DNA of 64,000 nt from contig CBFHFQ010000299.1 of the NCBI GenBank assembly GCA_965655095.1, positions 1 to 64,000 on the forward strand, in the 5' to 3' direction. The DNA is from Haplodiscus bocki (taxonomy: Eukaryota). Below are positions 4,400-43,480 of this stretch, piece by piece (the stretch's first letter is position 1; every line of letters starts with the position of its first letter). The notes under the pieces were generated by a model, which saw nothing but the letters and a program-made list of their open reading frames with translations, made no database searches and was not told where the DNA came from. Both the position numbers and the translations under genes were made by a program.

Positions 4400-5310
4400 T
4401 TTCACAAATGTCTAAGAAAACTTCTGTGTAAATCAGCAGTCAGCCTGAACAGATTAAGTTGGGAAAAAAGAAAGAATGAGGTAATGGAAGGCTCCCTGGA
4501 AGGAGCAGGAAAGCATTGGATAGACAAAACATGCATCAAAAATTTCCCAAGTTCCCAAGTATTTAATACCTGATAATTTTGACAGTCTCACGAAAAATGA
4601 GCTTAAAGCTAATATAAAACGTATGTCACCTTTACATCGTCGACAATAAAGATCTATTTGAAATGTTCAACTAAATAAGGCTCTTTAAGAGCGTCCTCTA
4701 AGACAGTCACTGGTTTCCCTATGTCTCTGAATTTTGGTTCTTAAGGTCACAATTCAACAAACTGAACAGCTTTTTTGTGTACCTTTTTGGATGTCTTGAA
4801 AATACAATTCAATGTATTGTTTTTTATCAAGGCATTCAAATAAATAAACTTCCTCTTCAACCTTGGCTCACGGGATTTCGATCTCCATTTACCACTTTCA
4901 GCAGAACGTGTACTTTATTGCACATTTCTATCAGAACTGTGCGATAAATTGCAGCTATTGAAAAAAAGTTCCAAAAAGATCTTAACCCGAAAACAGAAAG
5001 CAGTTGAAGGACTTGAAAACGAGCTTACCCTAGTACGATAAAGAATGCAAAAGGCATGCATGCATGCAGCCAAACTTTTTATAGAACATGGAAAATCCAG
5101 ACATCTTGGTTGGAAAAATCCTGCAAAATTTGTCTGCACTTTGTAAAATTTTTGAAAAATCCTTCATTGTTTTAGTATTCATTTTGATGTTTTCGGGTCC
5201 AGAACACCGTTTCCTTCCTTTAAACGTAGACTGCAATCTTAAAAAAATTTCTGAGGGAAAATGTCAACAAAAAAAACTCATACTAAAATTTAAAGAAATA
5301 ATAATTTTTT
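4400..5310 (+). pseudogene. Possible hAT-type transposase remnant interrupted by Polinton 1 (may resume at ~24216-24500)
   Basis: FLSELCDKLQLLKKS (~4925) resembles the hAT FLxD(I/L)xxxLNxLNxSLQ block; KILVTAGSGSAEGG (~24335) loosely resembles the dimerisation-domain SAER motif. Weak. Confidence 0.25.
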
Positions 5311-5313
5311 ACA

Positions 5314-5875
5314 AGTAGTGTACAAAAAGGCATATGACACCAGACGCGGCGGCCGCACATCTTAACACAAAATAAAACAACAAAAAATTAATAGCAGAGT
5401 CCCTACACAGGGGTATATTTATAAAATAAAAAATAAAATAAAAAAGTAATTACTTATCAATGGGGTAGCACAAATTATGATAAAAATGAAGTGAAAGTAT
5501 ATAATTATGGGAAATTGAACAAATATGTTCAATTATACATTTATTTTATTTAATTTAAATTGTAGAAATTCCACTATATGTATGAATAATTTAAAAAATA
5601 AAACAAAAGATACAAACACTCTGTGTAGGATAACTCTGCTATGAATATTTTGTTGTTTTATTTTTTGTTAAAAAGTGCGATCCTTGCGACTGATGTCATA
5701 TGGCTTTTTGTACAGTACTAAGTCGTGACAGTATAAGATTTCTTTTTATTAGATAGAATTCTATTATGTTATCTTACATTTTTTTCTCCTCGTAATATAT
5801 ACTTTTCACATTTGTCATTATTTTTAACGTGTCTAGCCTTTTCAAATTTTTCTTTTACTTTTACAACCATTTAAT
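5314..5875 (+). repeat. Left TIR of Polinton 1 (~550 bp)
   Basis: Reverse complement aligns with ~23672-24209 (e.g. gtgtctagccttttcaaatttt vs aaaattttgaaaagactagacac); inner limit approximate. Confidence 0.9.
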
Positions 5876-6264
5876 AGTGTTGTTTTTTTCTGTTTTCTGA
5901 AGATGCATTTCAAATAAATCATTTCTTTAAATATTAGTTACATTGAGTTCACAAGTGATGAGAAAGTAGTTGCACAACTCATAGACGATAAATCAAATTG
6001 AAAAATACAGATTGAAATAGCCTCGAAATCATCACCCAAAACTCCTGTAAAATAAATTTAATCTTTTTAAATAACCAACGCAACTATCTTCTTCCCTAAT
6101 CACTTTCTCTCAGTAAAATATTCAGTAAAATACTCTCAAAAACATTTTCAATATCATTATCATAAATTTTTCAAAATTTTAGTATTCTTCTAATGGGTAT
6201 TGTTAATTATACATTTACGCGGCTGATTTAATTCATAAATAACATAAAAATTATAAAATTTTTA

Positions 6265-6480
6265 TTATGTTCTGCAAATAACACATCTTAATATATCAAT
6301 ATTACCTTTATTCTGATAGCATTGCTCACAAATACATTGATGACCACAATGTTTAAATACATAATCACTATCTCGCTCAAAGCATATAACACACTTCTAA
6401 TGTTCATATCTTCATCCATGGACACTGTTCAATAGACGGCCAACAACTATCGATCCTATTACAATCCATCATTTTTTTGA
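6265..6480 (-). pseudogene. RING-HC (C3HC4) finger protein, putative E3 ligase; missed by the ORF track
   Basis: 6396->6265 reads KCVICFERDSDYVFKHCGHQCICEQCYQNKGNIDILRCVICRT*, with all eight ligands; upstream frame has stops; 5' end approximate. Confidence 0.85.
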
Positions 6481-6600
6481 AACAATTCCAACTAGATTTT
6501 TTAAGGTTGATAATAAAACGGATCTAAATTACCATCTATTGAATTTAACAATGTACCTTGATTGACTTCATTATTTTCAATAAATTTTTAGTGATTTGAT

Positions 6601-7228
6601 ATGAAATATGTATATTCTTCTCCGAACGCAATAGTACAAGGCCATCGAGTCTTCACCAAGATTTATATCAAATATTAATTAAATGTTTTAGTAATTATAT
6701 ACCTGTTCACAAAATCCCAAATATTTTAAATGAAGAGGATACAGATGAAAAATTTACCGAAAATAAAGACTTTGAAAAACCAAAAACTGGAATAGAAACA
6801 TATGAATCGATAAAGGAATTAATAATTCTCCAGGAAGTTGAAAAAAAATATCATAATTATCTTAGATGGTTTGAAAGAAAAAGAAATCAACAACGATAAA
6901 ATACAAGCGATGTTTAAACGAGGACGTCATAATATATTATCTATATTTCTAATAAGTCAAGATTACTATGAATTACCAAAGAGAACGATTAGACCTAATG
7001 GCATTACCTATCACATTTTGAAACCAAACGTTTTCTTAGACGTTTGTAATCTTTATCAAGACAAAGCTTCCATGGATATGACATTAGATGAATTTAAATA
7101 CCTAACTAGTACTTGTTGGAATTACAAATATATTCCTCTAACTTTTGATATGACAACAGATAATTATACAGCTTGTTAGAGATTGGGATTAAATTCAATA
7201 TTTGTTCCAGATAGCAATCTTTTTTAAA
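6601..7228 (+). pseudogene. A32/FtsK-like DNA packaging ATPase (Walker A not intact)
   Basis: IIILDG (degenerate Walker B), MFKRGRH arginine-finger motif, ISQDYYELPKRTIR. Confidence 0.85.
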
Positions 7229-7375
7229 TATCATATACCTGTACGTGTACCCTTGTTTAAATACTCTTATAATTATACTTACGACCTAATTTTTATGAAT
7301 GTATAAATACTCAGATAATTGTAATTATGCTATTGTATAACTACTCAGATAAAGGTATGTATTTGAGTCTTATAA

Positions 7376-8074
7376 ATGAGTATTTATTCTAAGGTTACAG
7401 AACAAAATCAAGAGATAGTTCCTGTTGAAATTGATTCAGATAATTCAGAGGGTGATAATATAAGAGCTCTTCCAAACAGTTCCATTTTCAGTGATCCAAT
7501 GACAAAAACATTAGGGAGACTAATGTCTAGTTCCAATTCTCTAAAAATTAAAGCTTCTCCTTCTGGCGCAACAATTCTCTGAGTTCCTATATATACTCTA
7601 GGTGGTGATAAAATGAGAATACGTCATAATGATTATGAATTAACTCCTCAAGTTTGTAAAACGTTATGTTATACAGGATATACTGGTAAAAATATGAAAA
7701 AGAAAAATGATATTTTAATGATGATTAATATTATAAGAGATCAAGATTACACTGGTATTGGTGATAGACCATCAAATAGAAAAAATTTGTTCACAATAAC
7801 ACTCCCAAAAACAGTTGAAGAAATTCAAAACAAAACTTTTGATGAAATTACAGACGACTCTGATGATTTACAAGGAGAAGGAGTAAATATTATTTTACCC
7901 TGTAACATAATTGATATCTACACAAGACTTGAAATCTTACTCCGATTAAAACTGAGTGCCCATACTGATACCTCAACAGAAGCTGGTAACTTGATAGATG
8001 AATTATACAAGAGAGGTGAAATACTAAATGAACAACAAAATCGAAATGCTATCAAAAATTATTCTACCCTCTGA
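7376..8074 (+). pseudogene. Conserved Polinton protein of unknown function, likely core protein
   Basis: C-terminal IILPCNIIDIYTRLEILLRLKLSAHTD..EAGNLIDELYKRG matches the Polinton-type DPNEL..RL.LL....AGN block also seen at 51476-51742; one in-frame stop at 7580. Confidence 0.65.
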
Positions 8075-8860
8075 ACGGAACTACCTAGTAAACTATTAGA
8101 ACAAATAGCATTTAATACAAGACCTAAGATAGAAGAGCATATGCTAATTGTTTTTGGATAAGAGTACTCATGAAGAGCCTTTATCTCAACCATTTGAAAC
8201 TAATAAAAAACTTTTTAAAATTGCATTCACTTTCCTAACCGGTTATAATGGTACTTTCAAAATCACATATTCAAATAAAAAGTTTTATTGCAAGAAAACA
8301 ATTACTGGCGGAGTTGATTTTATTCAAAATAGTATAAAACCAGGTGTGTACGAAATCGAATCATTAAGTAACGAAATCAAGAGGATTATTATTGATAAAG
8401 GTCATTATAGTGAAAATGAAGATCCGTTCAGGATAAAACCAATTTTTTCAACACTCGGATCTAATATAGAAATATCACCACAAAGATCGATAATCAATTT
8501 TGTGTTTAACGATAGTATTACGAATGTTCTAAGATTTGATGAGGTTATATTATACAAAGAATATAATCTTTCACCTAATCCTGTTGATGTTTTATCATTT
8601 GATGAAATTTTTCTCGAATGTGATATTGCCAAAGGATAATTTTCAAAAGTAACAGAAGTGGTATCATTCATAATTGGACAATGACAGTTGATCCTGGTTA
8701 TAAAAACATCGAAATGTTTCGCGGTGGCGTGCAATGGTTTTTGCCGGAGACTAAAGATTTTATTTCAAGTATTAGTTTCAAATTAAAAAATGGAAACAAT
8801 GAATTCGTATCATTCAACGGCCAAACAATCACCTTCAGAATATCTATCAATGAAATATAA
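8075..8860 (+). pseudogene. Minor capsid (penton-like, single jelly-roll) protein
   Basis: PGVYEIESL, SPNPVDVLSFDEIFLECDIAKG, VDPGYK, ISSISFKLKNGNNEFVSFNGQTITFRISI are typical of Polinton mCP; one frameshift near 8640. Confidence 0.8.
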
Positions 8861-8879
8861 GTTAAATTAAATCTTATAA

Positions 8880-9040
8880 ATGCTGAAGTTTTTTTAAAAA
8901 ACCAAGATATAACCCTAAATTTAAAATTAAATCAAAGACGGAAAAAATTAAATGTTGACTCATCAACCAATTTACCATCTATTCTACAAAACTTTAAACA
9001 AAAATTATTATCCGGAGAAGGATTTATTATATACAGGTAG
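8880..9040 (+). pseudogene. Small lysine-rich putative core protein
   Basis: TAAATG start, K-rich, ends LLSGEGFIIYR*; frameshifted. Confidence 0.4.
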
Positions 9041-9060
9041 ACGTTTTTTATATCTAGTAA

Positions 9061-10359
9061 ATGAGTGCTATAGATTTTCAACTAAAAGATGATGAGAAAA
9101 TTGACGATTCCATTTTAAAGCGAGATTTCATAAAAATTGACCATCAATCCGCAGCTGATGGTAATAACGGAAATTGAAATATTAAATTCTATTTCGGTGA
9201 AAATCATGATTTTATTCAAATTGGTAATGGGTAAATAGAATTTTATATAACAATTAGAAAAGATGAAAATGATAATTTAACCATCACTTCTCCCGGGCAT
9301 GATGTTATTAGATTAGTTAATAAGGCTTTCGCTTATACAATTCCCATGCACGAATATCTTTTTCTTCAGGAGTCGAAATCGAACAAAATAAATATGTCGG
9401 GCCTATTTGTACTTTAATGACATTAGTTACACAAAAAAATGGTGATTTATCTACATATTTTGATAGAATTGATGAGAGTGAGGCTGGAAGAGAAAATTCT
9501 TCATTAAAAAAATACTCATCAACAATCATACTGCAGATAATTGAGTTGTTATTAAAGGTCATCTTCCCTTAGAATATATTTTTGGTTCTGCAAAATCATT
9601 TGAAAAAATACCTAAAGGATTAGGATTTGAATTAGATCTACCAACATCAAATAGAAAACGGGACATCTTATATACAACCTTGGGAGATGATGATGTTAAT
9701 GTTACCATCAATTGCATTAGTCTGTTTTTCCCCAGTTAATACCATCCCCTGGAACTCAAGTAAATTCTAATGAAGCTATTTCAAAAACCTTTACATTATC
9801 CTGTGAGCCTTGGACGACTGAAAGAAAACCAATCGATACAGCTAGAGAATTTCAAACAGATATCAGTTCAGCATCAAATATCAATTCTCCTCCATACCTA
9901 AATGCTGCCCATCAGAGAACACAGAGGTCCGATCCTGCTGATCATACTATTAATCTTCCAAACAACAGATTCAACGGTGCTATTTTCGATCATAGTAAAG
10001 TAAGAAAATATTATTCGGAAATAGAGGGCGTTCGTTATCCAAAGAATCCAATCACGATTAATTATGATGATAACAATTATCTGGCTCATTATAGAGATTT
10101 AAAATTGTTTCATAAAGAGTACGCCGGTGAATCGCTTCTATCTCTTATTATAACATATGGTAACATGAAGACTTATTATCCTACACAAATGTTGGATCTT
10201 CGATTTCAAGTAGATCATATAGCACCAAAGAAAATAAGACATTTTGAAGAATATGATAAAAATCCAGGTAATACTACTTTATATGTAATCTTGATAAAAC
10301 CTAGAGAAATTAAAATGATTTCTGATGGTATTAAAATTATCAGTGTTGAAATTGTATAA
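9061..10359 (+). pseudogene. Major capsid protein (double jelly-roll)
   Basis: ~430 codons across frameshifts: DDSILKRDFIK, GVEIEQNKYVG, LPLEYIFG, GLGFEL, IEGVRYP, LDLRFQ, LYVILI; lies between mCP and protease. Confidence 0.85.
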
Positions 10360-10541
10360 ATATATTTATACTTGTATTGATTTGTACAGTTATAATAATA
10401 TTTATATTTCTATTCACATTGGAACAGGTGTAATTATACTGTATTGATTAATTACATTCAAAAAATATGTTAATTTATTCATACAAGAGTAGTAAATACA
10501 TTTGACTGAGTGAAATTGTAACATTATCTATCAACTACTAA

Positions 10542-10938
10542 ATGACAATACTTAGTTTGAAAGATTTTATGAAAGAATATAATTTGAAAAATGATACTAT
10601 GAATGAATCAGATTTATAAAGAGTTTATAATTGTAAAATTTATCCTGGAGATAGTAAAATAACAACATCTAAAGGATTCGTAAATATAGACATTGGATCT
10701 CAAGGAGGATCTCATTGGACATGTTTTATAATAAAAAATAACAAGTCACATTACTTTAACAGTTTCGGTGGTCAGCCAGATAATTTTCCTCTCAATGAAT
10801 TACCTAAACCCATGATATATCATAATTATAAAAATCAAGATTTATATTCCAAATTATGTGGCTCATACTGCTTATACTTTTTCTTTTTAATTGAAAGAAA
10901 GAATTCTTATGATACTATTTTAGAAATGTTTTTTTGAT
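10542..10938 (+). pseudogene. Adenain-like cysteine maturation protease; missed by the ORF track
   Basis: NIDIGSQGGSHWTC, YFNSFGG, NQDLYSKLCGSYCLYF give the His/Asp(Asn)/Gln/Cys arrangement; one in-frame stop. Confidence 0.9.
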
Positions 10939-11040
10939 AAAGTATTGTAAACGAATAATTCCAGTATGATATTTTCAGTACAAAAACCCTATTGAAAGTA
11001 ATGTTAACTTAAATCAATTTCGTAAACTTAAACTGCAAGA

Positions 11041-12674
11041 AATGTATTTGGTAACAGTTGTTCCTCATATGATAATGGTAATGAAATTGAAAGATCATTA
11101 TTTGTACAAAAACCTTTTTTGAGATCTATTTTTATAGAAAGTAATATAGAAGAAGACATTGACTTAATAAATCAAACTAGAATTAAAAATTTACCAGATC
11201 TTATGTCCATACGAGAAGCAGCTTCAAAAATTTATGTTGATAATTTTTTTTAATGATCCTAGTATAATAATAAACAACAATCTGCATATAGACATAGACC
11301 TGAAAGATAAAATATTGTCAACGTAGGTTTTATAGAAGTAATTCGTTTGCCAAAATTTGGTGATCAATTAACATCAAAACTATATGTTGATAAAAATATT
11401 AGAATCAATGTAGTGGAATCAACTTTATTGAGATTAGATCCCGATGAAAATTGGAATCTACATGAACAAGATTCAATAATTCTTAATTCTACTTCAACAT
11501 CACTGAAAACGATAATAGAAATAATTACTAAAAATTATGTTCATAATAAATTTAATGATCCTAGTATAATGAAAAACACCGCACACATAGATCGTAAAGA
11601 TAGAAATATTACCAACGCTAGATTTATACAGGTGAATCAATGGCCCCAGATCGATTCTCATTTAACACCAAAGCTATTTGTTGATGATGCTATAGTCGAA
11701 TTGTCATTAGTGAGAATTAATCAAGACAACAATTTTAACAATCACAACTTAACTATTATAAACATTATTATTTTGAATTTACAAGCAGAAAATGATATTC
11801 AAGTCATTACTAAGGCCTATGTAGATCAATTTTGCCAAGAAAATGAACGATCTAGACGAGATTTAGGTACAAAATTTTATGATGAATAAAGTGATTCAGT
11901 AAAAAACATTCAAGATATTGAGTTCAACGATAGTAAATTAATAAATTCTGATAGTGTTTCAGTTAATAGATATCTTAGTTCAGATAATGAACAAGAAAAC
12001 AAAAAATTTTTTGATGAATCTTTAGGCAGTGGTAAAAATTTAAGTTTTAATCAAACAGTACAAATATATCTCAAGGTTTCTGGTGGAAATGATACATAAA
12101 CTCCTACTAAAAATGATAAAATACAAGTAACTGATACTACAATAATAAAATATCCAATTACAGGTAATTATCTTCTACAGAATTGGGTTATAAAATGTAT
12201 TGTTAAAATTAATAATTGTTAAAAAACCAAAATTTATAAAATCAACAAAAACAAACAACCCAACAGGTTAATATGGGGCAGAGTCGTTATTTCCTATCGG
12301 TAATAGTTTTATGTATGTAGAGACATCATCTAATAATCATGGTAACAACGTATTTGTCAGCTTCGAACGAACTGATATTTTTCAGATTAGTAATATTACT
12401 TTCTATTATGATAGATTTTCAATTTTAACTAATGATTCATTGAAATCAATGGGTCGTGTTAGAATTCAATTGTTATTATAAGATAATACTTGGAGTACTC
12501 TATATAACATACCTAAAAATGATCGATGTAGTGATACATCAACCCAATGGACGAAAATAACTTTAATTTTTTTTTGCAGAAAATTAGGGGACTAAATTAA
12601 TTTATGATGAGATAGACAGTGCCCATGCTGATATGTGCTTCAGTAGTTTTAAAATAACAAGTTCTGTATTTTAA
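11041..12674 (+). pseudogene. Fibre/spike-like protein with repeated KxYVD units
   Basis: Repeats ASKIYVD, TSKLYVD, TKNYVH, TPKLFVD, TKAYVD and two FNDPSI..N..HID blocks, then a beta-rich C-terminus; includes ORF 11347-11889. Confidence 0.55.
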
Positions 12675-12918
12675 ATGAAATATGAAAACTATTTTGCAGA
12701 TATGTTTGAATCTATTCCTGATTACGGAAAAATAGTATTAATAATATTATTAATTCAAAATGGTGGTGATTTATTCAAGGAAAATGGTTTTTTGAAGAGT
12801 GATATTAATCGTTTAAATAAAGGGTTCAAATATATTTCACTTGAACAAAATGAAGAATACTTAGATTATATAAAAAACGAAGAAGAATCATAAATTGAAA
12901 AGGTCTTAAACAAGTAAA
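12675..12918 (+). pseudogene. Small hypothetical Polinton protein
   Basis: ORF 12675-12893 with TAAATG start abutting the fibre-gene stop; frame continues a few codons past a stop. Confidence 0.45.
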
Positions 12919-13159
12919 TAGAAGCTTGTTTTGCTGTAAAGTTTGAGGATATTAGACATGAAAGATCGTTTATATTATAACTGTCATTGACGGATCCTGA
13001 TACATTAAAACAAATCAAATTCCCAGATCTTGAAATAAATATTATAAAAAACGTAGCTTCAGAAAAATTACACATACAGCGAATATTAAAAAAGGAAGTA
13101 GCTATTGCTTTATTGCTTTACTCGAAGCAGAATTAGAATAGTTTTTTTTTGTTTAAAAA

Positions 13160-13775
13160 ATGAGTATATATCCTATTTTGAATAAAGATCCAGTATTGTT
13201 GAGCAGAAATACTAAAGATGATGAAATCAAAGACTTAAAATATGAAACTGAGAAACACGATCATGAAAATATATTAAAATCACTTAAAATTGATAATGAA
13301 AGTTATAAGATGAACTAAAAAATTTTAAATAAAAAGAAAGTGTTATTAAGCATCCCTGAAACTTTAAATGGATCTGCTTCAGTTTTTAGTTCTTCAACAT
13401 TGGGTTTGATCAATCCTGGTGCGGGTAATATTAATTCAAGTTGCACAGCTCCGTTAACTGGTATCGCTACCATAATCACTAATGAATACATCTCAAAATT
13501 GAAGATACGATATACTAAGCTTAGGGGGTGGAAATATTTTATATACTTTGTTATATGAGAATACTTTAAAAACTTCCAAGGTTGAATAAAAAAATGATCA
13601 AAAAGAAGCTGAGGAATTGAAAAAGATTAATAATCATTATCTTCGTAAAAGAAAAGAGATCATGGAAAATACTAGTTTCAGGGTTGAAGATGTTTTCGGT
13701 GATGTTCTAAGTAAAGATAATTTTAGTCAAGAACAAGAAACTAAACCTAATAAATTTTTAGCCAAAATAATGTGA
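13160..13775 (+). pseudogene. Putative membrane-active protein (coiled coil, hydrophobic hairpin, coiled coil)
   Basis: MSIYPILNKD start; small-residue hydrophobic core GSASVFSSSTLGLINPGAG..TAPLTGIATII; same architecture as 53204-53740. Confidence 0.55.
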
Positions 13776-13881
13776 ATATAAATATAAATAACAAATTTGT
13801 TTTTTTTTCAAATAGAAAGAAAAAAAATATTGATTATCAACCGATTGCTCCTCCCTAGTATGAATAACTTTTCTTTGTCAA

Positions 13882-14040
13882 ATGACAAAGACATGGTGTG
13901 TTGGTGGAAAGCATTATAGTGATACAAATAATATAATTGAATACGAGGAAGTGAACCCTAAAACCAAAAAACTACTTAAAATTATAAAAGGTAATTGTAG
14001 CATTTGTAGACGAAACAAATCACAAATTTTTACTAAGTAA
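13882..14040 (+). CDS. Small zinc-ribbon protein (DUF5679-like), 52 aa
   Basis: MTKTWCVGGKH...IIKGNCSICRRNKSQIFTK*; open frame below the ORF-track cutoff. Confidence 0.55.
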   Translation: MTKTWCVGGKHYSDTNNIIEYEEVNPKTKKLLKIIKGNCSICRRNKSQIFTK

Positions 14041-14469
14041 TTGACTAAAGGAGACAATTTTATTAAAAAAGGTAAATGCAAGAATAATCATTGTTCATCT
14101 ATGGCAAATTCAGCGTGGTGTGACGTAAATAGTAAAAGTGATATATTAAAACTACATGATAAATGTCCTAATCCTATATGTAAATCTCAAAAGATAATTA
14201 CCTTCACACCACGTCAATATATGCTCGAGGGTGGATCAATAAAAACTAAATTAAAATCAATTTTCAGAGGAACAAAAAAAGCTTAAGATAGGTTTATCGA
14301 ACCAGGTTTAAAAATGGTAACACCACTCAAATCGGCCCCTGTTACCGCAAAAACAAAGAATCCTCAATCTCCTCAAATAACGAATAAATTTTTAAAATCA
14401 TTTACAGGTGGTAAACTTTTATCAATAACCGATATACATGGGAACGGATTACAATTAAAAGTAATGTGA
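14041..14469 (+). pseudogene. Basic Cys-containing core protein with adenain-type cleavage sites
   Basis: K-rich; MLEGGS, FTGGK and IHGNG in one frame; one internal stop at 14284. Confidence 0.55.
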
Positions 14470-14499
14470 ACTCCTTTCAAATAAATGTCAGCTAAATAA

Positions 14500-15110
14500 A
14501 TGAATAACCAAATTGTAGAAAATAAGATGATGAAATTGTGTTCTAAATGTGCAATTATTTGAAAAAAGAGTAGTTTTTTGCTCATAATTTAACAAAAGAT
14601 AAATTATATCCTAGTTGTAAGTTTTGTGTGATTCAAGAACAAAAAGATTTTTAATCAAAAAATCGAGATCGAATAAATAATAATCACAAAATAAATAGTT
14701 AACAAAACAGAGCTAACTTAAACTCAAGTGAGAGAAGGAGAAGACTCTCAGATTTTAATTATCGTTTGGTTAAGAACACGAGATGTAGAATTCATCATGT
14801 TCTTAATAGTAATTGAAAATCATCTTGTACAATAGTTATTTTAGGTATTGACATAGAAACCTATCGAAAATGGATCAAATACCAGATGACTCCTGAGATG
14901 AACTGGTAAAATATTGAATATGATCATCTGAAGCCCATTTGTATGTTTGATGTATCCAAAGAAAAAGAGTTGAAAGAAGCATTCTGCTGGAAAAATACTC
15001 AGCCCATATCAAAACACAATCATAAGCAAAAAGGGATTAAGTTTAAGTTTTTAGATTATCAACTGCAATTTTTCAAAGCGTATCAATTTTTCAAATTAAA
15101 TGAAGAAGAG
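14500..15110 (+). pseudogene. HNH-like endonuclease of the type common in large dsDNA viruses; missed by the ORF track
   Basis: N-terminal CxxC..CxxC, then RCRIHHVL, ILGIDIETYRKWIKYQMTPEMNW, EYDHLKPICMFD, FCWKNTQPI..HNHKQKG. Confidence 0.75.
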
Positions 15111-15957
15111 AGACCTAACTAAAATCTTTATTGATGAAATATACAGTAAACCTCCTAAGAGAAATTATGAAACTATAAAAATATTATACAATCACATTGA
15201 TGGAATATGGAGCATTGACTTAGCGGACATGATTGATTACAAAACATCAAATAATAAAAGATATAGATACACATTCTCTGTAATTGATAATATCTCGACG
15301 TTTGTTTTGGCCCACTTCTTGAAAAAAGGTATAGTAAAACAATAACAGAGGAATTTTCAAATATTCTAACCACTTCAAAACGATCTCCTGTTAAATTAGA
15401 AAGCGGTAGAGGAGCAGAATTTTATAATAGTATCTTTCAAATTTTTTGAAAAGTAGAAATATATGAGAATCTTCACAATTCACAGAGAAAGGCCCATCGA
15501 TAGCAGAACAAGTCATTATAACTATACGTAATTTATTAAGAAACCAATGTTTTTAGCTGGTAAAGCGTAAAGCTTCGTGGATAAATGAATTACCATCTGC
15601 TTTCAAGAAGTATAATAATACCATACATTATTCAACAAAAGTAACTCCCATTTAAACTAGTAAAAAATCAAATGAAAAAGTAGTTTATAACAATCTTAGA
15701 GACGATAGAGAAAAACAAAAACCAAAGTTTCATCTTTCTCAATTAGATAGAACAGCTGATATTAAAAAAGTTTTCAATAAGGATGATTTAACAAATTAGA
15801 GTTATAAATTACACTCACAGAAGTTATACACGACACTATACTGTCATATCGAATCAACTATTTACACGAAAGATACAGTGAACACTTTTTAAGACCAACA
15901 AAATAAACCTTGGAAGAAAATAATCAAGTTATGAAAGAACTAAAATTATTTCAATAG
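15100..15957 (+). pseudogene. Retroviral-like (rve) DDE integrase
   Basis: IWSIDLADM, YRYTFSVIDN, LESGRGAEFYN, YNNTIH; frameshifted. Confidence 0.9.
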
Positions 15958-15969
15958 TATAATAAATAA

Positions 15970-17291
15970 TAAAGGGAACTAACAGAAGTTGAAATTAATA
16001 AAAGATATGCTAAACAATGTGGTCAGTGCAATCGAAATACTCTTCTACCATACGAATATGAATGGACTTGTATTTTTCGTGGATACAACGTAATCAAACG
16101 GAAGCACGAACTTAGTGAAATTCAACGAAGGAAAGTAAACAACATAATTCGATTAAAATTTGCTGAACACCCAATTTTTTGCATTTGTATAGATGTGTAT
16201 AAAATACATGAAGTATTAACCAAATTAAAAAATAAAAAACTAAAAATAAACAATAGCCTAATTGGGAAATATGAAGAAAGGTTAGAAAATTATAATTTTG
16301 AACCAGACTACTATTCAAGAACAGCAATAGGTGTTTATAAAATGGCACATGATTCTCTTAGATTAATGAAATGGTTAGCTTATTATGATAGGTCTTATCA
16401 TGAGAAGATAAGTAATTATGATTTGATGGGTTCTTTTTCAAAAGATTTATATGAAATTTTTTAATGGTGAAAATTTTGTTGAAGTGAACGGCCATTAATT
16501 TAAAATTCATCCAACAGAAAAATTAATTTTAGGACTCCGCGGAGAACCAAAATGTATTAGAATTCAATATCATGTTCAAAATGAAACTCGGATAAGGAAA
16601 AATCAAAAAGATATTGGAAGTAAAAATAATGAATTAGAATTTAAGAATTCTCCTAAAAATAAACAACCATTTTTTCAACAACAACCAAAATTCAAACCAC
16701 CAAATTGTCCTAGTTGCAAACAAAATAATTGGTTAAAACTTGATAAAAGTTAATATTGTCAGAATTGTGAATATAATATTAATAAACAAAAACATCAAAT
16801 TGATAAAAAAAGTTCCTAGACAATATCATTATTTTTCAACTAGATTGCCATATGCTAAAAAGGAAAAACAAACTCTGATGAATATAGTTGAAACTACTTA
16901 TATTACAACAGAAGATATGATTATTAGGTTACAAAGTTTGAAATGTAAAACAAAGTTGAAATTTCATAAAAATTCAAGTAATTATTATGATGAAATGAAT
17001 ATTAGGAATTTTCAGTTTGAAGAAGATATTTTTTCTAGAAATGCTCAAAGTATCAGTAAAGTTTATCATGAAGTATTATTTTTATTGAAATTTTCACAGA
17101 CTAAACCTCAAGTGAAAAATATCAATAATAATTATTAAGATTTATATTATACAGTAATTAAAAACAGAGATGATGAAGAAATTGTGAATGACAAATATGA
17201 AGATAACGAAACTGATCATTTTAATTATGACGACTTCATAACACATATTCATTCTATTGGACGAAAGAACGATATTGAAATATTAAAGTAG
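15970..17291 (+). pseudogene. Cluster of hypothetical Polinton genes (small Cys-rich protein; 16195-16464; CxxC protein ~16463-17291)
   Basis: KQCGQCNR..WTC; PPNCPSCKQNNW..CQNCEY; ORFs 16195-16464 and 16740-17138. No recognised family. Confidence 0.45.
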
Positions 17292-17297
17292 AGGAAA

Positions 17298-19330
17298 ATG
17301 AGATCGCAGATAAATCATTTCAAATATTTCTTACTATTTAAATAGAGACGCAAATATTGAACAGCCGCAAATGTGAAATTTGTTTTATTGATGTTCATAG
17401 AGCATCTTATATCAAACAATTGAAAAGTATAAAACACTTAGAAAAAAAACAAAATGAAATGATTTTTCCAGAATGGTTATTTAGAGAATTTCTTGAAAAT
17501 CAAAATAAAAAAATAAATAATCGTAAATCATTAAAACGAACAGCCAGGGAAATTAATCTGCTGAAGGATACGCAATTGAATAAAGAATTACCTAAAAAGA
17601 TGAATATTCCATATTTTTTTACTGATGAAAATTTGAAAAAGGGATTCAAAATTAATCCAGATATTCAACACATTAATCATACTAGTTCTAAACTAACTAC
17701 TACACCAATTTATCCTGAATTTGGAGTTGAAGTTCGTTATGTTAATGAAATCATAAAAGAAGTATCTGTCATTTCTGCTAGACTAATAAATCAATATAAA
17801 CTCAGGAACGAAGCAGTTTTTTCAGCAACATTTGATAAACAAGATGAAGATAGTCAAGTATTAGATGAAACAGAATTATTCATTAATTTGAATTTCAATC
17901 AAAAATTAACAGAAAGTGATCTTGATAACATTGACATTAAATCTCCAATGGAATATCAGATACAACAACAGGAAATGAAAGATTCTGGACGGCGATTTCA
18001 TAAAATTAATTCGATGACTTTATATTTCTATCAAACAGGTATAATGAATAATGAATGGTTCAAAATATATTGAAAATCCTTTGAGATCAAAGGCTATCTT
18101 GATTTTTGAAAAAATGGTAAATATTGTTTTATTTGGTCTATATTAGATAGTCTTCCTCCTTGTAGTAATAATCATCCGAATAGTGTTTCGAATTATAAAC
18201 ATTCTTTTGATGAAATAAACATTCAATGTTTCGCTTTTACTAATGGATTCAAATGTAGTGATGTTCACGATTTTAATGAAATAAAAAATTTGTCCATAAA
18301 CATCTTTGAATTAAACTTTTGTCAACATCAGAATAAATGCAAACATAAATAATCCCTATTGAAGTTAGTAAAACTGAATCAAATAGAATTGTTGACTTGA
18401 AAACTTACAAAAATATTTATGTTCTAATTAAAAAATTAAATGTATTTTTAGGAGATCTTCACAAAACTTTCAATTGTAGGCAGTGTTTGAATTCATATGC
18501 AAGTGAAAATATGTTAATGTTACATAAACAAAATTGTGGTGAGGATATTATAACTACTACTAGAATATCATCTGATTCTCATATTTATTGGAAAAATCAT
18601 TTTCATAAAAATCCAATATAATTTATGATTTATGCAGATTTCGAGGCTCATATTGAAATTTTTAAATCTAGCATACGTGATAGGACAACTAATATTTATA
18701 AGCAAAACCCAGTACTTAATGGTTTTCACATATTATCTGGTATAGAACATGTTTTAAAAAGTGGTTATTATAAATCTCCTCTAGGTTACAATAAAATGAA
18801 TTGGTTTGTAAACTAAGTTATGAAATTAGAATAAAAGATGGTTTTCTATTTTAAAAACACTGAGAAAGACATCATTATGACTGAAGAAGATGAAGAAGAT
18901 TTTCGAAATTTTAATACTTGTCCTTTTTAAATAAAAATATTGAATCTGATAAAGTAACAGGTCATTGTCAATAAACAGGTAAGTACAGAGGCCCAGCTCA
19001 TAGCAAATGTAATATTAATGTTACTCAAGATAAAAGCAGTTTTATACCATTTATAATTCACAATTTTAGTAACTATGATTGTCATATGTTTTTCAAGGGA
19101 TTGGTTGATAAGAAAATGATAGAGTAAAGGTTGATAATACTCCCAAAACAAATGAAGAGTTTCTGTCAGTAACATATGGTTGTATTAGGTATATAATTAG
19201 CTATCGATTTCTATCAAGTAGCTCAGATTCATTATTTAAAACATTACTTGATAATAGTCATAAAACAATGAAAGATTTGAGAGAAGAAATTGTTGATAAT
19301 GAAGTAATCTTAAATATTGTTAATGAATTT
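17298..19330 (+). pseudogene. Protein-primed DNA polymerase B, N-terminal half only (copy A)
   Basis: Zn finger CEIC..H, CFIWSIL, ExoI YADFE, EndoVII-like HC..TGKYRGPAHSKCN, ExoII HNFSNYD; stops before the polymerase motifs. Confidence 0.9.
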
Positions 19331-19344
19331 TAAAAAAAACATTA

Positions 19345-19820
19345 CATTGATAAAGAAGTTCGTAGGCAAGATCATCTTTTTTCAACTAGATTACCATATG
19401 CTGATAAAAGGATAAGAGAAAAGTGGATGAATACGGTTAATACTACATGTAATTCAACAGAAGATATGATTAATAAGTTACAAGAATTGAATGGAAAAAC
19501 AGAATTAAAGATTTTATAAAAATATAAGTAATTATTACGATAATATGAATATTAAGATGGATGAAGATCCTTTTGCTAAAAATGGTCAAGGTTTTAGCAA
19601 AAATTATCATGAAGTATTGTTGTTAATGAAATTTCTACTGACTAAGCCTCAAGTTAAGAATATGAATCTTAATTAAAAAGATATATATTATACTGTTATT
19701 AAAAATAGAGGTGAAAGAGAAATTGTTGATAATAAAAATGAAAATGATTATAATAATTTTAATGATATTATGCCTAATCATTACATTGGAATTAAAAGTA
19801 ATAATGAAGAATTAAAGTAG
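19345..19820 (+). pseudogene. Diverged duplicate of the 3' part of the 16463-17291 gene
   Basis: FSTRLPYA, TEDMI.KLQ, YHEVL.L.KF..TKPQVKN are shared with 16800-17291. Confidence 0.8.
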
Positions 19821-19826
19821 AGAAAA

Positions 19827-22800
19827 TTGAGATCTCAGATAAATCATTTCAAACTTTTTATCCCATATAAAAAGACACGCAAAAAGAATACCCGCCAATG
19901 TGATATTTGTAATGTTGATGTTCACCGAGCATCATATGTAAAACATTTCAGAAAAAAAACTTTAGAAAATGAAAAGCAAATTGAAATGATTATACATGAA
20001 AGTTTATTTCAAGAACCTATTGAAAACAATATTTTAAAAATAAATTATCCTAAAACATTAAAACAAATAGCAATAGAAAATATTAAACTGGCTGATAAGC
20101 AATTAAATAAAGAATTAGCTAAAAATATGATTAGTTCTTATTAATTCACTGATAGAAATTTGAAAGTGGGATGCAAATTTATTTTAGATAGTCATCATAT
20201 TAATCATTCTAATTTTAAATTAACTATTACACCTAATTATCGTGAATTTGGAATTGAAGTTCGTTATATTAATAAAATCATAAAAGAATTATCTGTTATT
20301 TATGCTAGATTAATAAATCAATATAAATTCAAAAATCAAACAGTAGTTTCAGCAAGATTTGACAAACAAGAGGAAGATAATCAAGTATTAGTTGAAACAG
20401 AATTGTTCATCAATTTAAAAATCAATCAAAATTTAACAGAAGGTGATCTTGATAATATTGACATTAAATCTCCATTAGAGCATCAAATACAACAACAAGA
20501 GAAGAAAAATTCTGGATGGAGATTTGATAAAAATATTTCAGTGAAAATATATTTTTATAGAACTGGTGAATTAAATGGTTCAAATTATGTTAATGTTTCT
20601 TTGAGATCAAACGCTATCTTAAATATAGAAAATATTGAGTAATATTGTTTCTTATGAGCATTATTACCTTTTATACATCCTTGTAATGACAATCATCCGA
20701 ATAGAGTTTCAAATTATAAACAATATTTTAATGAATTGAACATTCAAGGATTTGATTTTACAAATGGGTTCAAATGTAGTGATATTCATAAATTTGAGGA
20801 ATTAAACAATTTATCGACAAACATGTTTGAATTAAACTTTGATCAAGATCACAAAAAGTGGAGAAATAAACCAAACCCTAGTGAAGTTAATAAAAACGAT
20901 TCGGGCCCAGTTACTGATTTATTAATTTACAAAAATCATTATGCTCTCTTTAAAAAATTTAATGTATTTTTAGGAGATCATCATAAAATTTCTACCTGTA
21001 GAAGGTGTTTGAATTCATATAAAAGCGAAAATATGTTAAAGTTAAATAAACAAAAATGCGGAGACGATAATATAACTACTATCAAAACTTCAAATGAGTC
21101 ACATCTTTATTGGAAATATCACTTTCATAAGACTCCATTATACTTTAGAATATATGCAGATTTCGAAGTTGAAAATGAAAAAGGTAATTCTAGTTTAGGT
21201 AATAAAGCAACAAATATTTATAAGCAAAACCGAGTACTTAATGGCTGTTACATAGAATCTGAATTGGAAGATGTCTCAAAAAGTGAATATCATAAATCTC
21301 CCATAGAATATAATAATGTTGGTTGGTTTGTGGATGAGGTTTTAGAACTAGAAAAAAAGATGGCTTTCAATTTTGAAAACACTACTAAAGATATTACTAT
21401 GACAGAGAAAGATGAGAAGTTTTTAAAATTAATAACAATCGCCGATTTTGTGAAAAAGGAATTATCGATAATAAGGTTAGAGATCATTGTCACTTAACAA
21501 GTAAATACAGAGGAGGGGCTCATAGTATTTGTAATTTTATATAACACAAAAACAAAGTATCTTCATCCCATTTAATTTTCATATTTTTTCTAATTACGAT
21601 TGTCATATGTTCCGCAAAAAATTAGTTGACGAAAAGAACGATAAAGTTAAATTTGATATACCTAAGACAAATGAAGAACATATTAGTGTTACTTATTGTT
21701 GTCTTATATATATTGATAGTTACCGTTTCTTATCAAGTTGTTTAGATTCCTTAGTGAGGACACGGTTGATAATGATGAAATATTGAATATTGTTAATGAA
21801 TTAGGAGAAGATAGGACTATTGAAGATTTGAAATAGGATTATCCGGATAAAATAGGGGACTTAGAAGAAGCTTTACTCAATTATATAGGTGAAAAAGATT
21901 CTAAAATTTTAAAAACGGAACTTCCTGATAAATGGAAGTATTTAACTAAAAAAACTAGCTTATCCATATGAATTTTTCAATTGTATTGAAGATTATCAAA
22001 AGTCTGTTGACAATTTAAAGAAAGAAGACTTTTTCAGTAAATTAAAAAAGAAATGTCCTGATGATGAAGAGTTAGAACGAACAAAAGAATTTATTAGAAG
22101 AACCAATACTAAAAATGGAGAAGAATTAACGCAAAAATATTTAAGAAGCGATGTATTTTCACTTACATGTGCGTTTGAGAAGTTTATAAAAAAATCAGTT
22201 AACGAATCTGATATCAGTCCTCTAAATTGAGTTAGTTTATCTGGTTATAATTGGCAGTGTTGTTTAAAATATACAGGAATAAATTTACAAACACTTCAAG
22301 ATAAAGATTTAGTTTTAACATCAGAAACTAATTTACGTGGTTGAATATCATCAGTAATAGGAAATAGATTTGCGAAATCAAATGAAATACAATAAAATAA
22401 TTTATGCGGATGCTAAGATGTTATATGGTCATTCTATGAGTCAACTTTTACCTTATGATGAAACTGAAATGTGGCGCGATCATTCAGATCTTTGTATGAA
22501 TAAGTTAGAAGAAATTTTGAATACTCCTGATGATAGTGATCATGGGTACTTCCTTGAAGTTGATTCAAAATATCGCGATAATATAAACGAAAAAACGAAA
22601 ACTTTTCCATTTTGTGCTGAAACTAAAGTTAATCATAAAGATAAATATAATGATTATATGAGAAAAATAAAACCTAAAAACTATATAAAAGCTATGAGTC
22701 TAATATGTGTTTGGATTGATGAAAAGAATTGTTTAAGTCAATATAGGTTGTTAGAATTAGATGCTACACATGGTATGGTAGTTGATAAAAATCATGAAAA

Positions 22801-23670
22801 AATTTCGTTTAAACAGAGTAAGTGGTTGGAGAAAAATAAAAATTTTAAAACACAAAAGTGAAACAAGGCTAAAAAATATTTTCACAAAGAATTCTATAAA
22901 TTACTCAACAACGCATTTTATGGAAAAACAATGGAAAATATTCGTAATTGTTTGAAATTAAAATCTTTTTAAACAGATTTTACAAAAAATATTATTAAAC
23001 AACAATCTAAATTGACTTTCAATGGAATTCTCAAATCAAATGGAAATTTTGGTAGCTATACATTCATCCAAAACGAAATTTTTATGGCTAAGGCCTAGTT
23101 ACTTAGGATTTCCTGCAATGAAATTGAGTAAATTACACATGTATGAGATATATTTTGATAAATTACAACCATATTTTGGACAGGAAATCTTACATTTACT
23201 TTATATCGATACTGACAGCTTTATATTAAGTATAAATACAAAAAATTTTATCAAAGATTTAAAAAAATTCAGAAGATATAATTCATTTCGTTCACTTAGA
23301 TGAAAATCATGAACTATTCAGTAAAAAAAATAAAAAAGTAATTGATAAATTCAAAATTGAAACACCTGAAAATATTTGGATAGATGAATTTGTTTGTCTA
23401 AGAGGTAAAATGTATGGATTTAAAAGTTGGGATCAGAGTAAAAATTTAAAAAAAGGAGTTTCTAAAACATATTGAAAAGGAATTAAATTTGAAGAATATA
23501 AGAAAAGTTTAGATGGAGAGGAACATGAAAAAAATGTGAAAATTAATTTATTCGATCACTTAACCATGAAATATGAAATGAAGCTCCAACGAGTAAAAAA
23601 ATCTATGCTATCTCAATTTGATGATAAACGATGATATACAAATGAAACTGAAATTCTACCTTGAAATTAG
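19827..23670 (+). pseudogene. Protein-primed DNA polymerase B, full length but decayed (copy B)
   Basis: YADFE; VRDHCHLT; motif A YADAKMLYGHSM; motif B KLLNNAFYGKTMEN; motif C YIDTDSF; terminal FDDKR. Confidence 0.95.
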
Positions 23671-23671
23671 T

Positions 23672-24209
23672 ATGATTAAAAGTTTTTAAAAATAGAAAAA
23701 AATTTTGAAAAGACTAGACACGGTAAAAATATTGATAAATCTAAAAAGTATTTTTAGGAGGAGAAAGAAATGTACGAGGTCATGATAGAGCTCTATATAA
23801 AAAAAAGAAATCTTATACTTTCACGACTTAGTAGTGTACAAAAAGTCATATGACATTAGTCGCAAGGATCGCACATTTTAACAAAAAATAAAACAACAAA
23901 AAATTCATAGCAGATTTATCCTACGCAGGGTTGTTGTCTATTTTATTTCGTTTTTTATATAATTCATACATATAATTGAATTTCTATAAATTAACATAAT
24001 TATATAATTGAACATATTTGTTCCATTTCACATAAATATATAAATTCACTTAATTTTTATTATAACTTGGGCTACCCCATTGATAAGTAAATATTTTTTT
24101 TATAATTATACCCCTGTGTAAGGACTCTGCTATGAATTTGTTGTTGTTTTAAAATTTTTAAAATGTGCGGCCGCCGCGTCTGGTGTCTTGTGCCTTTTTG
24201 TACACTACT
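23672..24209 (-). repeat. Right TIR of Polinton 1
   Basis: Inverted copy of 5314-5875, ending ...tgtacactact. Confidence 0.9.
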
Positions 24210-25095
24210 CGTACAAATGTATTTGAAAATTGAATAAAACACATCAATTTTAAGAAAAACACTCCGAGAAAGTTGCGAAAATAATCTCAATTTGACCGCT
24301 TTTAAGGACTGGCGTCCAACGGGGGGAGGTGGTAAAATTCTCGTTACTGCTGGTAGTGGAAGTGCGGAAGGCGGAGTCAACAGAAAAGATCCCTATGAAA
24401 AAATGTGCATTTCTCGACCAGCGAGCGAAATGATTTTGAATATTAAGCGCAAATTTTACAGTGCCGTGGATCGGAAACCTAAAAACAATAACTGATAATA
24501 TTGTACTTAGATTTTCTGCTGTATTGTGTTATGTATTTTTGGCCGTGTGAAATGAGTTTCTGAAATTTGGCTTCCAAAAACTATTTTTCAGTTTCGTCTC
24601 TGAGACCGGTTATTCAATTTTGTCCCTATGAGTAGTCACCTCGCACCCACATCATTTTATTTTAGATCTCATTCAATTTGACCTTATTCCAATTTTCTGT
24701 CGCTTCGGAAATCGCGAATTAAACTTTGCTTCTCAACCAACCAGTCAACATCAAGCACTTTTCTTGCGCGCGCACCTTCGAACCAGCTATCGTAACTTAG
24801 TGAGACAAGAATTTCAAAAAACTGTTACAAAGGCACAGTAACAAGTCTCGAGCGTAGTGGGAGCACGCATACCGCCAACTGAACTTGTCAAAATTTCAGA
24901 TCTTCTCTCATTAGATCTTAATATTTAGATCTTTTTCCACCCTCCAATTGTCGAGCCTACTTGAAAAGAAATAAGATCTAAAACATCATTGTACCTGAAA
25001 TACAAATAAATAAACAATACATAATAAAAATACATAATATCAATATATAAAAACGTAATTTATTCACTCTTCACTGAAAACTTTGTGTAGAGAAT

Positions 25096-29213: not shown

Positions 29214-29282
29214 AAATATTGTATTGAATATTGTCGAGATTAGTATTTGGAGGAGAGTTTATGCAACAAAGAGATGTGTGTA

Positions 29283-29524
29283 TGTTATTTGATCTCACGA
29301 GACAACGGTGTTGAGAGATACAAAAACTAAATTGGGAAAAAAGGACGTGAACAACTCAACTTGCTTCGATAAAATTCAACACCACCAATGAAAAAGGTTG
29401 TGAACAAATTTGCCAGCTCCAACAATTCCGACAAACATGAATTGCTTGGTTTTGCTGAAGTGACAATGAATGTGACTCAATTTAACATGGAATAAATGAA
29501 CGAACATTTCAGAAATCATAAACA
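29283..29524 (-). repeat. 3' LTR of BEL element
   Basis: TG...CA ends; about 11 mismatches to 35833-36074 by manual alignment. Confidence 0.93.
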
Positions 29525-35726: not shown

Positions 35727-35832
35727 TTCTGTGTAGAACTAATTTCCAACAGGCAAATTGGAAGTAAGAAAGATTGGCTGAAGCTTGACTAAATAAGCAC
35801 TGAGTGTCCGAGGTAACGGCGGACCACAGACA

Positions 35833-36074
35833 TTTTAGTTGATCTAACGAGAAAACTGTGTTAAGAGATACAAAAACCAAATTGGGAAAAAAGGACGTGA
35901 ACAACTCAACTTGCTTCGATGAAATTCAACACCACCAATGAAAAAGGTTGTGAACAAATTTGCCAGCTCCAACAATTCCGACAAACATGAATTGCTTGGT
36001 TTTGCTCAAGTGACAATGAATGTGACTCAATTTAACATGGAATAATTGAACGAACTTTTCAGAAATCATAAACA
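35833..36074 (-). repeat. 5' LTR of BEL element
   Basis: Direct repeat of 29283-29524; PBS-like sequence adjacent on the minus strand. Confidence 0.93.
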
Positions 36075-42279: not shown

Positions 42280-43480
42280 CGGCATTGGTAGTGTCATTGA
42301 ACTTGCCACGGCCAAACAAGTGTACAAAAAAGTTGATAATTTTACTAATTGACTAGTTGGGGTCTTGCAGAAGTTTTCACAGTTTTAACCTAAAGGCCTG
42401 TCTCAAAATAATTTTGGTTTATTTCATCCTGGTTACAAGGTCCATCTTCAGCTGTTGCCTTTGGAGTTTTGGGGTTCCTATGTTTTGTTCTCTAATGCCA
42501 AACGTGCAAGTTTTGAGTTTTTGGTCTGAATTAGTCTACCGGTTAATAGGTGAAACTCATGTTTTCGGAAGGACCTTCATTTTTTGTATTTTTCTTTGTA
42601 ATCGTGGATCTTTGAATTTGCTCCGACACCTGGTATACCTGTCAATGGCATTGACCATGTCAACACCAGCCGAGACACCGTAAAAGTTGAGCATGTCAAG
42701 ACTTCACGTTTTAATTCTGGTGTTGCAAAGTTCCAACGGTTTTGATCTGAATGCTTTCTTCAATTTTTCTGCAGTTTATTTCTTGCTAGTTACAAGGTCC
42801 GTCGTTGAATGCTGCCTTTGGGAGGCGTTTGTTTCATGGGGTTGTTTGGGTGAGGCTAGAAGTGTATTTTATTTTTTTTTTCGTCTGAAATCCGCAAACT
42901 TTTTCCCCTTAGAACCCATGTTTTCGGGAGTTCCTTCCTTTCTTTGTACTTTTTGCTTTTATTGATGGGGCTTTGAAATTGCACCTGAACGTTTCAGCCC
43001 TGCCAGCATCAGTGACTTTGTCATCACCAGCCAAGACTACATAAAAGTTGAACATGTCAGGACTTGACTTCTTAATTCTAGTCTGCAAAGTTCCAACAGT
43101 TTTATCCTGAATGCTTTTTTCAAGTTTTCTGCAGTTTATTTCTTGCTGGTTCCAAGGTCCGTCGTCTTTTTATGCAATTAGGGGCCACGTGTTTCACGGG
43201 GTTGTTTGGTTGAGGCTAGAAATGTGTTTTTTTGAATTTCCAAATTGTTTACCGTTAAAACCCATGTTTTCGAAAGGTACTTCATTTTTTGTACATTTTG
43301 TTTGTAATGATGGGGTTTTGAATTTTCACCTACACGTCATAGCTCTGCCAGTGTCAGTGACCATGTCATGGCCAGCCAAGACTGCAAAAGTTTTGAACAT
43401 GTTAGGACTTGGATTCTTAGTTCTCGTTTTGCAAAGTTCCAAAAGATCCGATCTGAATGTTTTTCTTTTCAAGTTTTGAT
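42280..43480. repeat. Diverged tandem repeat, ~350-360 bp unit, ~3.3 copies
   Basis: ccagccaagac..gaacatgt..gcaaagttccaa block at ~42666, ~43027, ~43372, with a weaker copy at ~42310. Confidence 0.85.

Follow-up and report, generated by a model that had tools for sequence, protein, structure and literature searches.

An inverted copy of the terminus within the end repeats of a Polinton lineage from Haplodiscus bocki

The 64,000 nt stretch of Haplodiscus bocki DNA that was analysed, here termed the window, contains a decayed Polinton in which each of the terminal inverted repeats (TIR) carries, in addition to the true AGTAGT terminus, a second, inverted copy of the terminal ~100 bases. This layout is a real structural variant of the Polinton end found throughout a lineage, and is probably not a MITE; the inverted copy likely arose once, in one Polinton lineage. 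Tentatively, and with a probability of about 0.42, this inner copy is read as a pairing partner in protein-primed copying, as opposed to a second end for the integrase, an interpretation that draws on predicted folds.

The element and its genes

The identification of 5314-24209 as a decayed Polinton with (AGT)2 ends, first made in the initial annotation, holds, as a protein-primed PolB (pPolB), an rve integrase, a packaging ATPase, the size, the TIR and the end motif were all found. The element coincides with a low-GC block in the GC profile of the window, and its core genes, all of which are broken, lie on the forward strand. With a length of 18,896 bp, TIR of 562 and 535 bp and AGTAGT/ACTACT ends, it falls within the 13-25 kb size, 100-1500 bp TIR and (AGT)2 or (AG)3 ends given for Polintons (10.1101/2023.08.22.554363, PMC8097293), and (AGT)2 ends are described for vertebrate Mavericks (PMC8097293). 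Its features are listed below.

5314-24209, forward strand: decayed Polinton/Maverick, recognised by GC drop, TIR and genes
5308-5313, forward strand: left copy, TTTACA, of a candidate 6 bp target duplication (right copy CGTACA, 24210-24215)
5314-5875, forward strand: whole left TIR, ~560 bp, 82.5% identical by blastn over 576 columns to 23675-24223
5314-5413, forward strand: left outer arm with the true terminus AGTAGT; GC box at nt 23-45 (5336-5358)
5414-5617, no strand: left spacer, with a CCCC/GGGG motif and a degenerate 18 bp AT-rich tandem array; not palindromic
5513-5534, no strand: 8 bp hairpin spanning two 18 bp units; imperfect in the right TIR
5618-5719, reverse strand: left inner arm, in which the terminal ~100 nt are repeated in inverted form; a derived sequence with an altered GC box
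5720-5731, forward strand: 12 nt junction between inner terminus and TIR body, 11/12 alike in both TIR
5732-5875, forward strand: left inner TIR body, 118/143 identical between left and right
6826-7179, forward strand: packaging ATPase fragment (Pfam Pox_A32, E 3.4e-5, above the cut-off)
9721-10359, forward strand: candidate double jelly-roll major capsid fragment (PF21738, E 1.4e-4, 21.6 bits, under the curated cut-off of 27)
10620-10937, forward strand: candidate adenain-like protease fragment (ESM Atlas 0.95 to a cluster in which 15-19% of members have PF00770)
15100-15948, forward strand: rve integrase, broken (tblastn; PF00665 in 120/120 relatives listed)
17357-19327, forward strand: partial tandem duplicate of pPolB (tblastn of P0008)
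19887-23667, forward strand: pPolB with an HNH/EndoVII-like domain, broken (tblastn of the relative P0008)
23675-23829, reverse strand: right TIR body and junction, beginning just past the pPolB end (~23667)
23830-23931, forward strand: right inner arm with a perfect AGTAGT start (terminal 16-mer match, arm alignment)
23932-24112, no strand: right spacer (TIR alignment)
24113-24209, reverse strand: right outer arm with the true terminus (terminal 16-mer match, arm alignment)

Relatives of the pPolB piece made up 510 of 1403 candidate proteins, the best 120 listed, which come from ENA contigs, being 64-72% identical to it, and an intact relative of 1269 aa, P0008, matched 19887-23667 end to end by tblastn. 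PF03175 was precomputed for three of the 120 relatives listed and appeared in none of the five intact relatives in our own profile scan, and a PDB search with pPolB gave no match; an EndoVII/HNH-like domain (PF02945) was found in four of these five, below the Pfam cut-off. A general Pfam scan of 14 element fragments gave no match to an HUH Rep, and the adenain-like protease fragment had no Pfam or PDB match. A tandem 2.5 kb duplication (16785-19234 and 19332-21753) covers the first ~655 pPolB residues; since its copies are 75% identical and the TIR 82%, the duplication either predates insertion or joins two sublineages.

The bases flanking the element agree at four of six positions, the chance of at least four agreements there being 5.8%, in an element that is itself about 10-17% decayed. 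The host flanks at 5300-5313 and 24210-24223 are weakly inverted relative to one another (10/14), as is expected of a palindromic integration target. On the left, 5044-5219 is a high-copy repeat in the sequencing runs of the host, so the Polinton inserted within another repeat, and an empty insertion site might exist among the copies of the latter.

Several further repeats are present in the window. A second, truncated Polinton lies at 44400-53800, with a pPolB about 71% identical and a different layout, the integrase being on the strand opposite pPolB; no recognisable arm was found in this fragment. Next to it is a 38 bp AT-rich array (44138-44265). Direct repeats of 243 bp, 95% identical, at 29282-29524 and 35832-36074 bound 6.8 kb as an LTR-like pair, and degenerate ~360 bp tandem repeats occupy 42553-43477 and 58474-62273, the latter showing 720 and 1440 bp higher-order spacing.

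The inner terminus, its relatives and its copies

When the terminal 16-mer was sought with up to three mismatches, five matches were found in the window against 1.0 expected, a number reached by none of 100 shuffles. Four of these, at 5314 (forward), 5719 (reverse, with one mismatch), 23830 (forward) and 24209 (reverse), are the AGTAGT-type termini that had been proposed from a first inspection, and the fifth is unrelated and has three mismatches. The same inspection had the first ~100 nt recurring inverted at about 5618-5719, and the arms 5314-5412 and 5621-5719 are indeed alike in 83 of 100 columns (83%; z 18, 0/300 shuffles). Folding of the unit as a single strand gave z -14.1 on the left and, on the right, which mirrors the left in its arms and termini as well, z -11.7, with 0/100 shuffles in each case.

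The extent and inner structure of the repeat differ from the original description. The TIR, put there at ~400 bp, measure ~560 bp (5314-5875 against 23675-24209, about 82% over 576 columns), and thus the inner terminus sits within the TIR, the body of which runs on for ~155 bp. The ~400 bp fold-back is likewise partial: the 100 nt arms pair, but the ~200 nt middle is not self-complementary, the spacer halves being no more alike than shuffles in either TIR (z -0.45 and -0.65).

Outer and inner arms are distinguishable by sequence. Both outer arms carry GCGGCCGC and both inner arms GCAAGGATCGC; outer-outer likeness (87/97) and inner-inner likeness (94/102) exceed outer-inner likeness (77-84 of 97-100). 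As had been argued initially, outer and inner arms thus diverged before the insertion. The arms are also closer between the two TIR (183/201) than is the body (118/143), with p 0.02 in a post hoc comparison.

A protein-based locus search of metagenomes confirmed 6 of 187 candidates, of which only one, L035, reaches a terminus. This locus, which holds the pPolB end and the whole right TIR, is the sole outgroup and a thin one. Four of the others (L031, L032, L034 and L036) had no arm match, and L033 reaches repeats without a terminus. In L033, the 3' part of pPolB and then ~105 bp direct repeats were seen (1-233, 2246-2667), and the first and last 233 bases of the contig are 95% identical, suggesting a tandem or circular form. 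The same type of search in viral contigs confirmed 0/11, 0/69 and 0/20 candidates; the exact terminal 16-mer hit 30 loci in viral contigs, none alike beyond the seed; and the arm patterns had no match in metagenome or in viral contigs. Two candidates were rejected. The sole arm-pattern match in GTDB, in a bacterial contig of 69% GC without pPolB, is a chance match, and L028, a viral contig with two 16-mer matches, proved to be a phage gene whose inverted end is chimeric. The end of that contig (1001-1469) is an inverted copy of internal sequence and looks like an assembly chimera.

The TIR of L035 is simple, having one arm match only and no fold-back (z -0.63). Of 15 diagnostic bases in nt 27-41, its tip shares 14 with the outer arms and 8-9 with the inner arms; the outer arm is therefore ancestral and the inner arm derived. 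The best-conserved stretch between L035 and the outer arm is nt 23-45, the GC box (22/23, with 16/22 and 8/25 in the adjoining parts). Over 97 columns, outer and inner arms show fixed differences in the form of seven substitutions, located at nt 27-40, and a single small indel close to nt 88, so that all seven substitutions fixed in the inner arm lie within the GC box and none in nt 41-87. Such clustering at nt 27-40 arises in 13 of 200000 trials if changes are independent, although p is 0.16 if nt 35-40 changed in one event, and the freedom of the first 26 nt from fixed changes is non-significant (p 0.07). The inner arm has thus retained AGTAGT and a predicted ability to pair while losing the conserved GC box.

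In L035, 733-1044 consists of 11.5 copies of an 18 bp AT-rich unit together with a 53 bp repeat around a CCCC motif. A period-18 signal is present in the spacers of the window as well, being reached by 9/1000 and 0/1000 shuffles, and the window spacer aligns to the L035 18 bp array in the same orientation (0/300 shuffles; non-significant on the opposite strand), indicating that the spacer is old subterminal Polinton DNA. The CCCC motif of L035 occurs once in the window spacer, and the L035 repeats are candidate host-factor sites. The central hairpin to which the initial annotation drew attention, at 5513-5534, is real on the left; as evidence it is weak, since an 8 bp stem is present in 419 of 2000 spacer shuffles (within 10 nt of the axis in 57 of 2000), and perfect stems of 8 or 7 bp are missing from the right TIR. 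It is a by-product of the 18 bp tandem array. A full 400 bp palindrome centred on it was considered and ruled out by the asymmetric halves and the shuffle frequencies.

Contigs from three sequencing runs of the host (at most two samples, from one study) were placed on 5000-6300 at 80% likeness, which gave 7979, 6605 and 7167 records. These contigs are short, abundance is expressed as contigs per run, and depth values were not taken as copy numbers. At the outer end, 5314, a total of 234, 209 and 235 contigs in the respective runs leave into dissimilar flanks (agreement 0.36), and these varied flanks indicate many insertions. At 5729, a junction position past the inner terminus, 87-99 contigs per run differ by one letter, and at 5715, where they agree with the right-hand copy, 97-103 do so; these differences lie up to 52-68 letters from the contig ends. 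Of 24 records listed, seven bridge 5719, and at least four differ in mismatch and gap counts from the right TIR of the element itself. As the inner end continues into the TIR body in ~100 contigs per run, the layout is family-wide and not a one-off.

Other contigs point to ends of a different kind. In 98-114 contigs per run the body is present from 5732 onwards, preceded by different letters that by eye are AT-rich and spacer-like, and a single X2 joint links 5509 with 5735. In a further 79-84 contigs per run, sharing of the terminus stops after its first 35 nt (to 5348); to judge by the divergence from there on, these contigs probably belong to other Polinton lineages in the same host. Taken together, and as read from short contigs, these three observations apparently reflect sister lineages without the inner arm. 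The objection foreseen at the outset, that other members might have simple TIR, is therefore half justified: it applies to L035 and, by this hint, to the sister lineages, yet ~100 contigs per run share the layout. The layout accordingly belongs to one lineage, and not to Polintons generally.

Possible origins and roles of the inner arm

The inner arm would have originated by copying or insertion of the end, together with 12 additional bases, in inverted orientation into the AT-rich array of one TIR, from which it could have spread to the other through panhandle-type end correction before the lineage expanded. In a strand displaced by pPolB, the 3' 100 nt would then meet the inner arm 200 nt away, and this local pairing would be reached long before the far TIR, 18.5 kb distant. 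Such a fold would protect the 3' tip and re-create the duplex GC box/origin for terminal-protein priming, while the altered GC box of the inner arm would confine origin or integrase binding to the true end. The idea of a local panhandle, raised in the initial annotation, is supported by the predicted geometry. The last 12 bases of the top strand are predicted to pair with the inner arm with a probability of 0.91-1.0, the 3' base lying flush with the start of the inner AGTAGT; for the bottom strand the predicted pairing is 0.5-1.0, the left inner copy having a mismatch. Pairing with the far TIR is nevertheless stronger than local pairing (-96 against -75 and -101 against -64 kcal/mol per arm; -385 for the whole TIR), so any local advantage would be kinetic only, and L035 and the apparent sister lineages, of similar abundance, spread without an inner arm, which is hence dispensable. 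These two considerations keep the probability of the preferred reading at the level given above.

It is possible, if doubtful, that the fold-back is useless, an end fragment in one TIR having been copied to the other and hitch-hiked as a tolerated accident. Its source would be a template switch or the leftover of a nested insertion, the latter being what is expected to produce the 2-3 contigs per run in which 5732 or 5749 is connected to an outer-type end lying on the opposite strand. That relatives do without the inner arm (L035 and the contigs loose before 5732) and vary freely in their TIR interiors (the 18 bp and 53 bp arrays of L035, the ~105 bp repeats of L033) fits well with such an accident, as does the frequent rearrangement of long TIR in other transposons, such as Galileo (PMC3573991). 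The inner GC box would have decayed, or been selected against merely to stop mis-cutting; yet three observations speak against an accident: there are zero fixed changes over 47 nt (41-87) that are unconserved in L035, beside seven in 14 nt, the inner AGTAGT is preserved in the right TIR and in the majority of contigs, and the arms are kept better than the body (p 0.02). Each of these counterpoints could also stem from arm-arm conversion or a young duplication.

The flush 3'-OH of the pairing that we favour would double as a primer, and a replicon that relies on protein priming would need a way to block or resolve it. That self-priming is itself the function is improbable. The folded 3'-OH of an excised or displaced single strand would be extended across the element as in parvoviruses. 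Opening of the hairpin would follow at its GC-box end, a step for which the HNH domain of pPolB or the integrase may be responsible, and the missing tip would be restored by protein priming or panhandle repair. The template available to the perfect primer-template junction of the predicted fold would be 155 nt of TIR followed by the whole element, and a folded 3' tip has been filled in, in vitro, in Streptomyces (PMC4513846). This model has been proposed for the terminal palindromes of Halocafeteria virophages and PLVs (10.64898/2026.07.28.741278), but those published palindromes go with replicases other than pPolB, whereas the present element retains pPolB and (AGT)2 jumping-back ends. The EndoVII/HNH-like domain of four of the five intact family polymerases might provide the opening activity, though HNH is also found in the pPolB2 of elements for which the available text of the source reports no fold-back (10.1101/2023.08.22.554363). 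Moreover, L035 has no fold-back, and resolution of the AAV type would flip the module, flips not being seen in the contig data.

A mixed form of end is similarly improbable, in which the inner terminus, dead in its GC box, would make the 3' tip a self-priming hairpin that can be opened solely at the GC-box end. By this reading the single strand would be made duplex without terminal protein, an HNH-bearing pPolB or the integrase acting as the opener. If this were so, the lineage would represent, in living form, a step intermediate between protein-primed replication and the hairpin-primed replication of the parvovirus type, and nt 23-45 would be marked as the recognition site of Polinton ends.

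It is very unlikely that the ~400 bp unit is a MITE-like mini-element cut by the Polinton integrase, the release of which had been suggested, or that two such units make up a composite Polinton, in the way that two IS make up Tn5 and Tn10. The unit is short and non-coding and has inverted AGTAGT ends, but it lacks a target duplication of its own, its flanks agreeing at 1/6 and 2/6 positions and containing no duplication of any length between 2 and 10 bp, and identical bases (11 of 12) follow the inner end in both TIR. Its middle is ancestral Polinton subterminal DNA, the TIR reaches 155 bp past it, and its inner GC box is lost. No loose end behind 5719 occurs in the best 18 of 1883 rows, all but one of which hold at least 69 contigs, against 209-235 contigs leaving at 5314. 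Release of a mini-element is disfavoured on these grounds. Solo 400 bp units were likewise absent from the window and from the rows shown, where detection extends down to about 60-80 contigs per run. In a separate search for a target duplication around the inner insert, only low-complexity 5/6 matches were obtained, and these were not accepted.

Flipping of the module, whether AAV-like or invertase-like, to give two end isomers is highly improbable, and the end inversion proposed in the initial annotation is correspondingly disfavoured. Joints on opposite strands, from 5314 to 5732 and from 5313 to 5749, occur in 1-3 contigs per run; the 2-3 contigs per run that they contribute join an outer-type end to the body, as a flip would, and are ambiguous, since they may represent flipped modules, inner arms nearer to the outer type or nested insertions. 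The module has the same orientation in both TIR, position-specific differences have persisted, and the rows shown include neither a clean 5314-to-5720 joint (none in the best 15 of 107) nor an inner-type arm leaving into host DNA at 5719. An assembly artefact, of which the chimeric inverted end of the unrelated viral contig L028 is an example, is refuted by the consistent differences of the four arms by position and by the independent contigs that bridge the inner end.

To our knowledge, Polinton excision, priming and re-integration have never been shown. The single-strand 'racket' model of these steps is still a model (10.64898/2026.07.28.741278). The host genome offers a natural experiment, with many copies that have, and others that apparently lack, a second internal terminus. 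Inner and outer arms differ almost only in a 14 nt part of the most conserved box, so that their comparison can locate what integrase and polymerase recognise, and counts of solo, flipped and dimer forms can discriminate between panhandle and hairpin priming. Should the arm prove to be a passenger, annotators would still be warned that such TIR resemble MITEs and blur the calling of ends.

Comparison with known systems

An adenovirus mutant with embedded ITRs, said to have been described by Haj-Ahmad and Graham in 1986, reportedly has an internal terminus that spreads to the other end during replication, a precedent for the copying between TIR proposed above. Like the element described here, it would be a protein-primed linear genome with a second, internal terminus; by contrast, it was reportedly a laboratory mutant with whole extra ITRs, and the Polinton has a fixed, diverged 100 nt arm in a natural lineage. 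In parvoviruses such as AAV, hairpin ITRs require HUH Rep and yield flip/flop isomers. The folding of the 3' end to a primer-template junction is common to both, as a prediction in the Polinton, in which isomers in similar numbers were not observed, no more than 2-3 ambiguous contigs per run being set beside about 100 of the usual type.

In its size, TIR range, (AGT)2 ends, pPolB, rve integrase and ATPase, and in its candidate capsid and protease genes, the element is like other Polintons/Mavericks (adintoviruses) (PMC8097293; 10.1101/2023.08.22.554363). No description of an internal inverted terminus in a pPolB Polinton was found in the available text of the literature covered, which includes 10.1101/2024.01.15.575659, PMC6431247, 10.1101/2025.02.07.637071, PMC11296320, PMC4061559 and PMC8502044, the founding papers of 2006-2007 and 2014, Repbase and bioRxiv supplements lying outside that scope. 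The TIR of the Galileo/Foldback elements of Drosophila are similarly long, gain tandem arrays and contain recruited sequence and short internal inverted repeats, although Galileo is a cut-and-paste element of the P superfamily, for which the available parts of the source describe no duplicated terminus (PMC3573991).

The single-stranded 3' tip of the Streptomyces telomere (Palindrome I) pairs with the internal Palindrome IV (PMC4513846). This, too, is a terminal-protein replicon with a 3' tip that folds onto an internal complement and is extendable in vitro, but the pairing is of 13 nt, the origin is internal, the ends are patched by Tap/Tpg, there is no integrase and the proteins are unrelated (PMC4513846).

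The closest idea already in print is that of terminal palindromes in protist virophages and PLVs. Endogenous virophages/PLVs of Halocafeteria seosinensis have such palindromes in their TIR, for which hairpin priming has been proposed, and they share with the present element a self-complementary end inside each TIR, by the target duplication, in a relative of Polintons (10.64898/2026.07.28.741278). The protist palindromes are 52 nt long and near-perfect, were sought with a gap of at most 10 nt and are tied to non-pPolB replicases. By contrast, the Polinton end has 100 nt arms, 17% diverged and separated by a non-symmetric loop of 200 nt, with a second (AGT)2 and with pPolB present.
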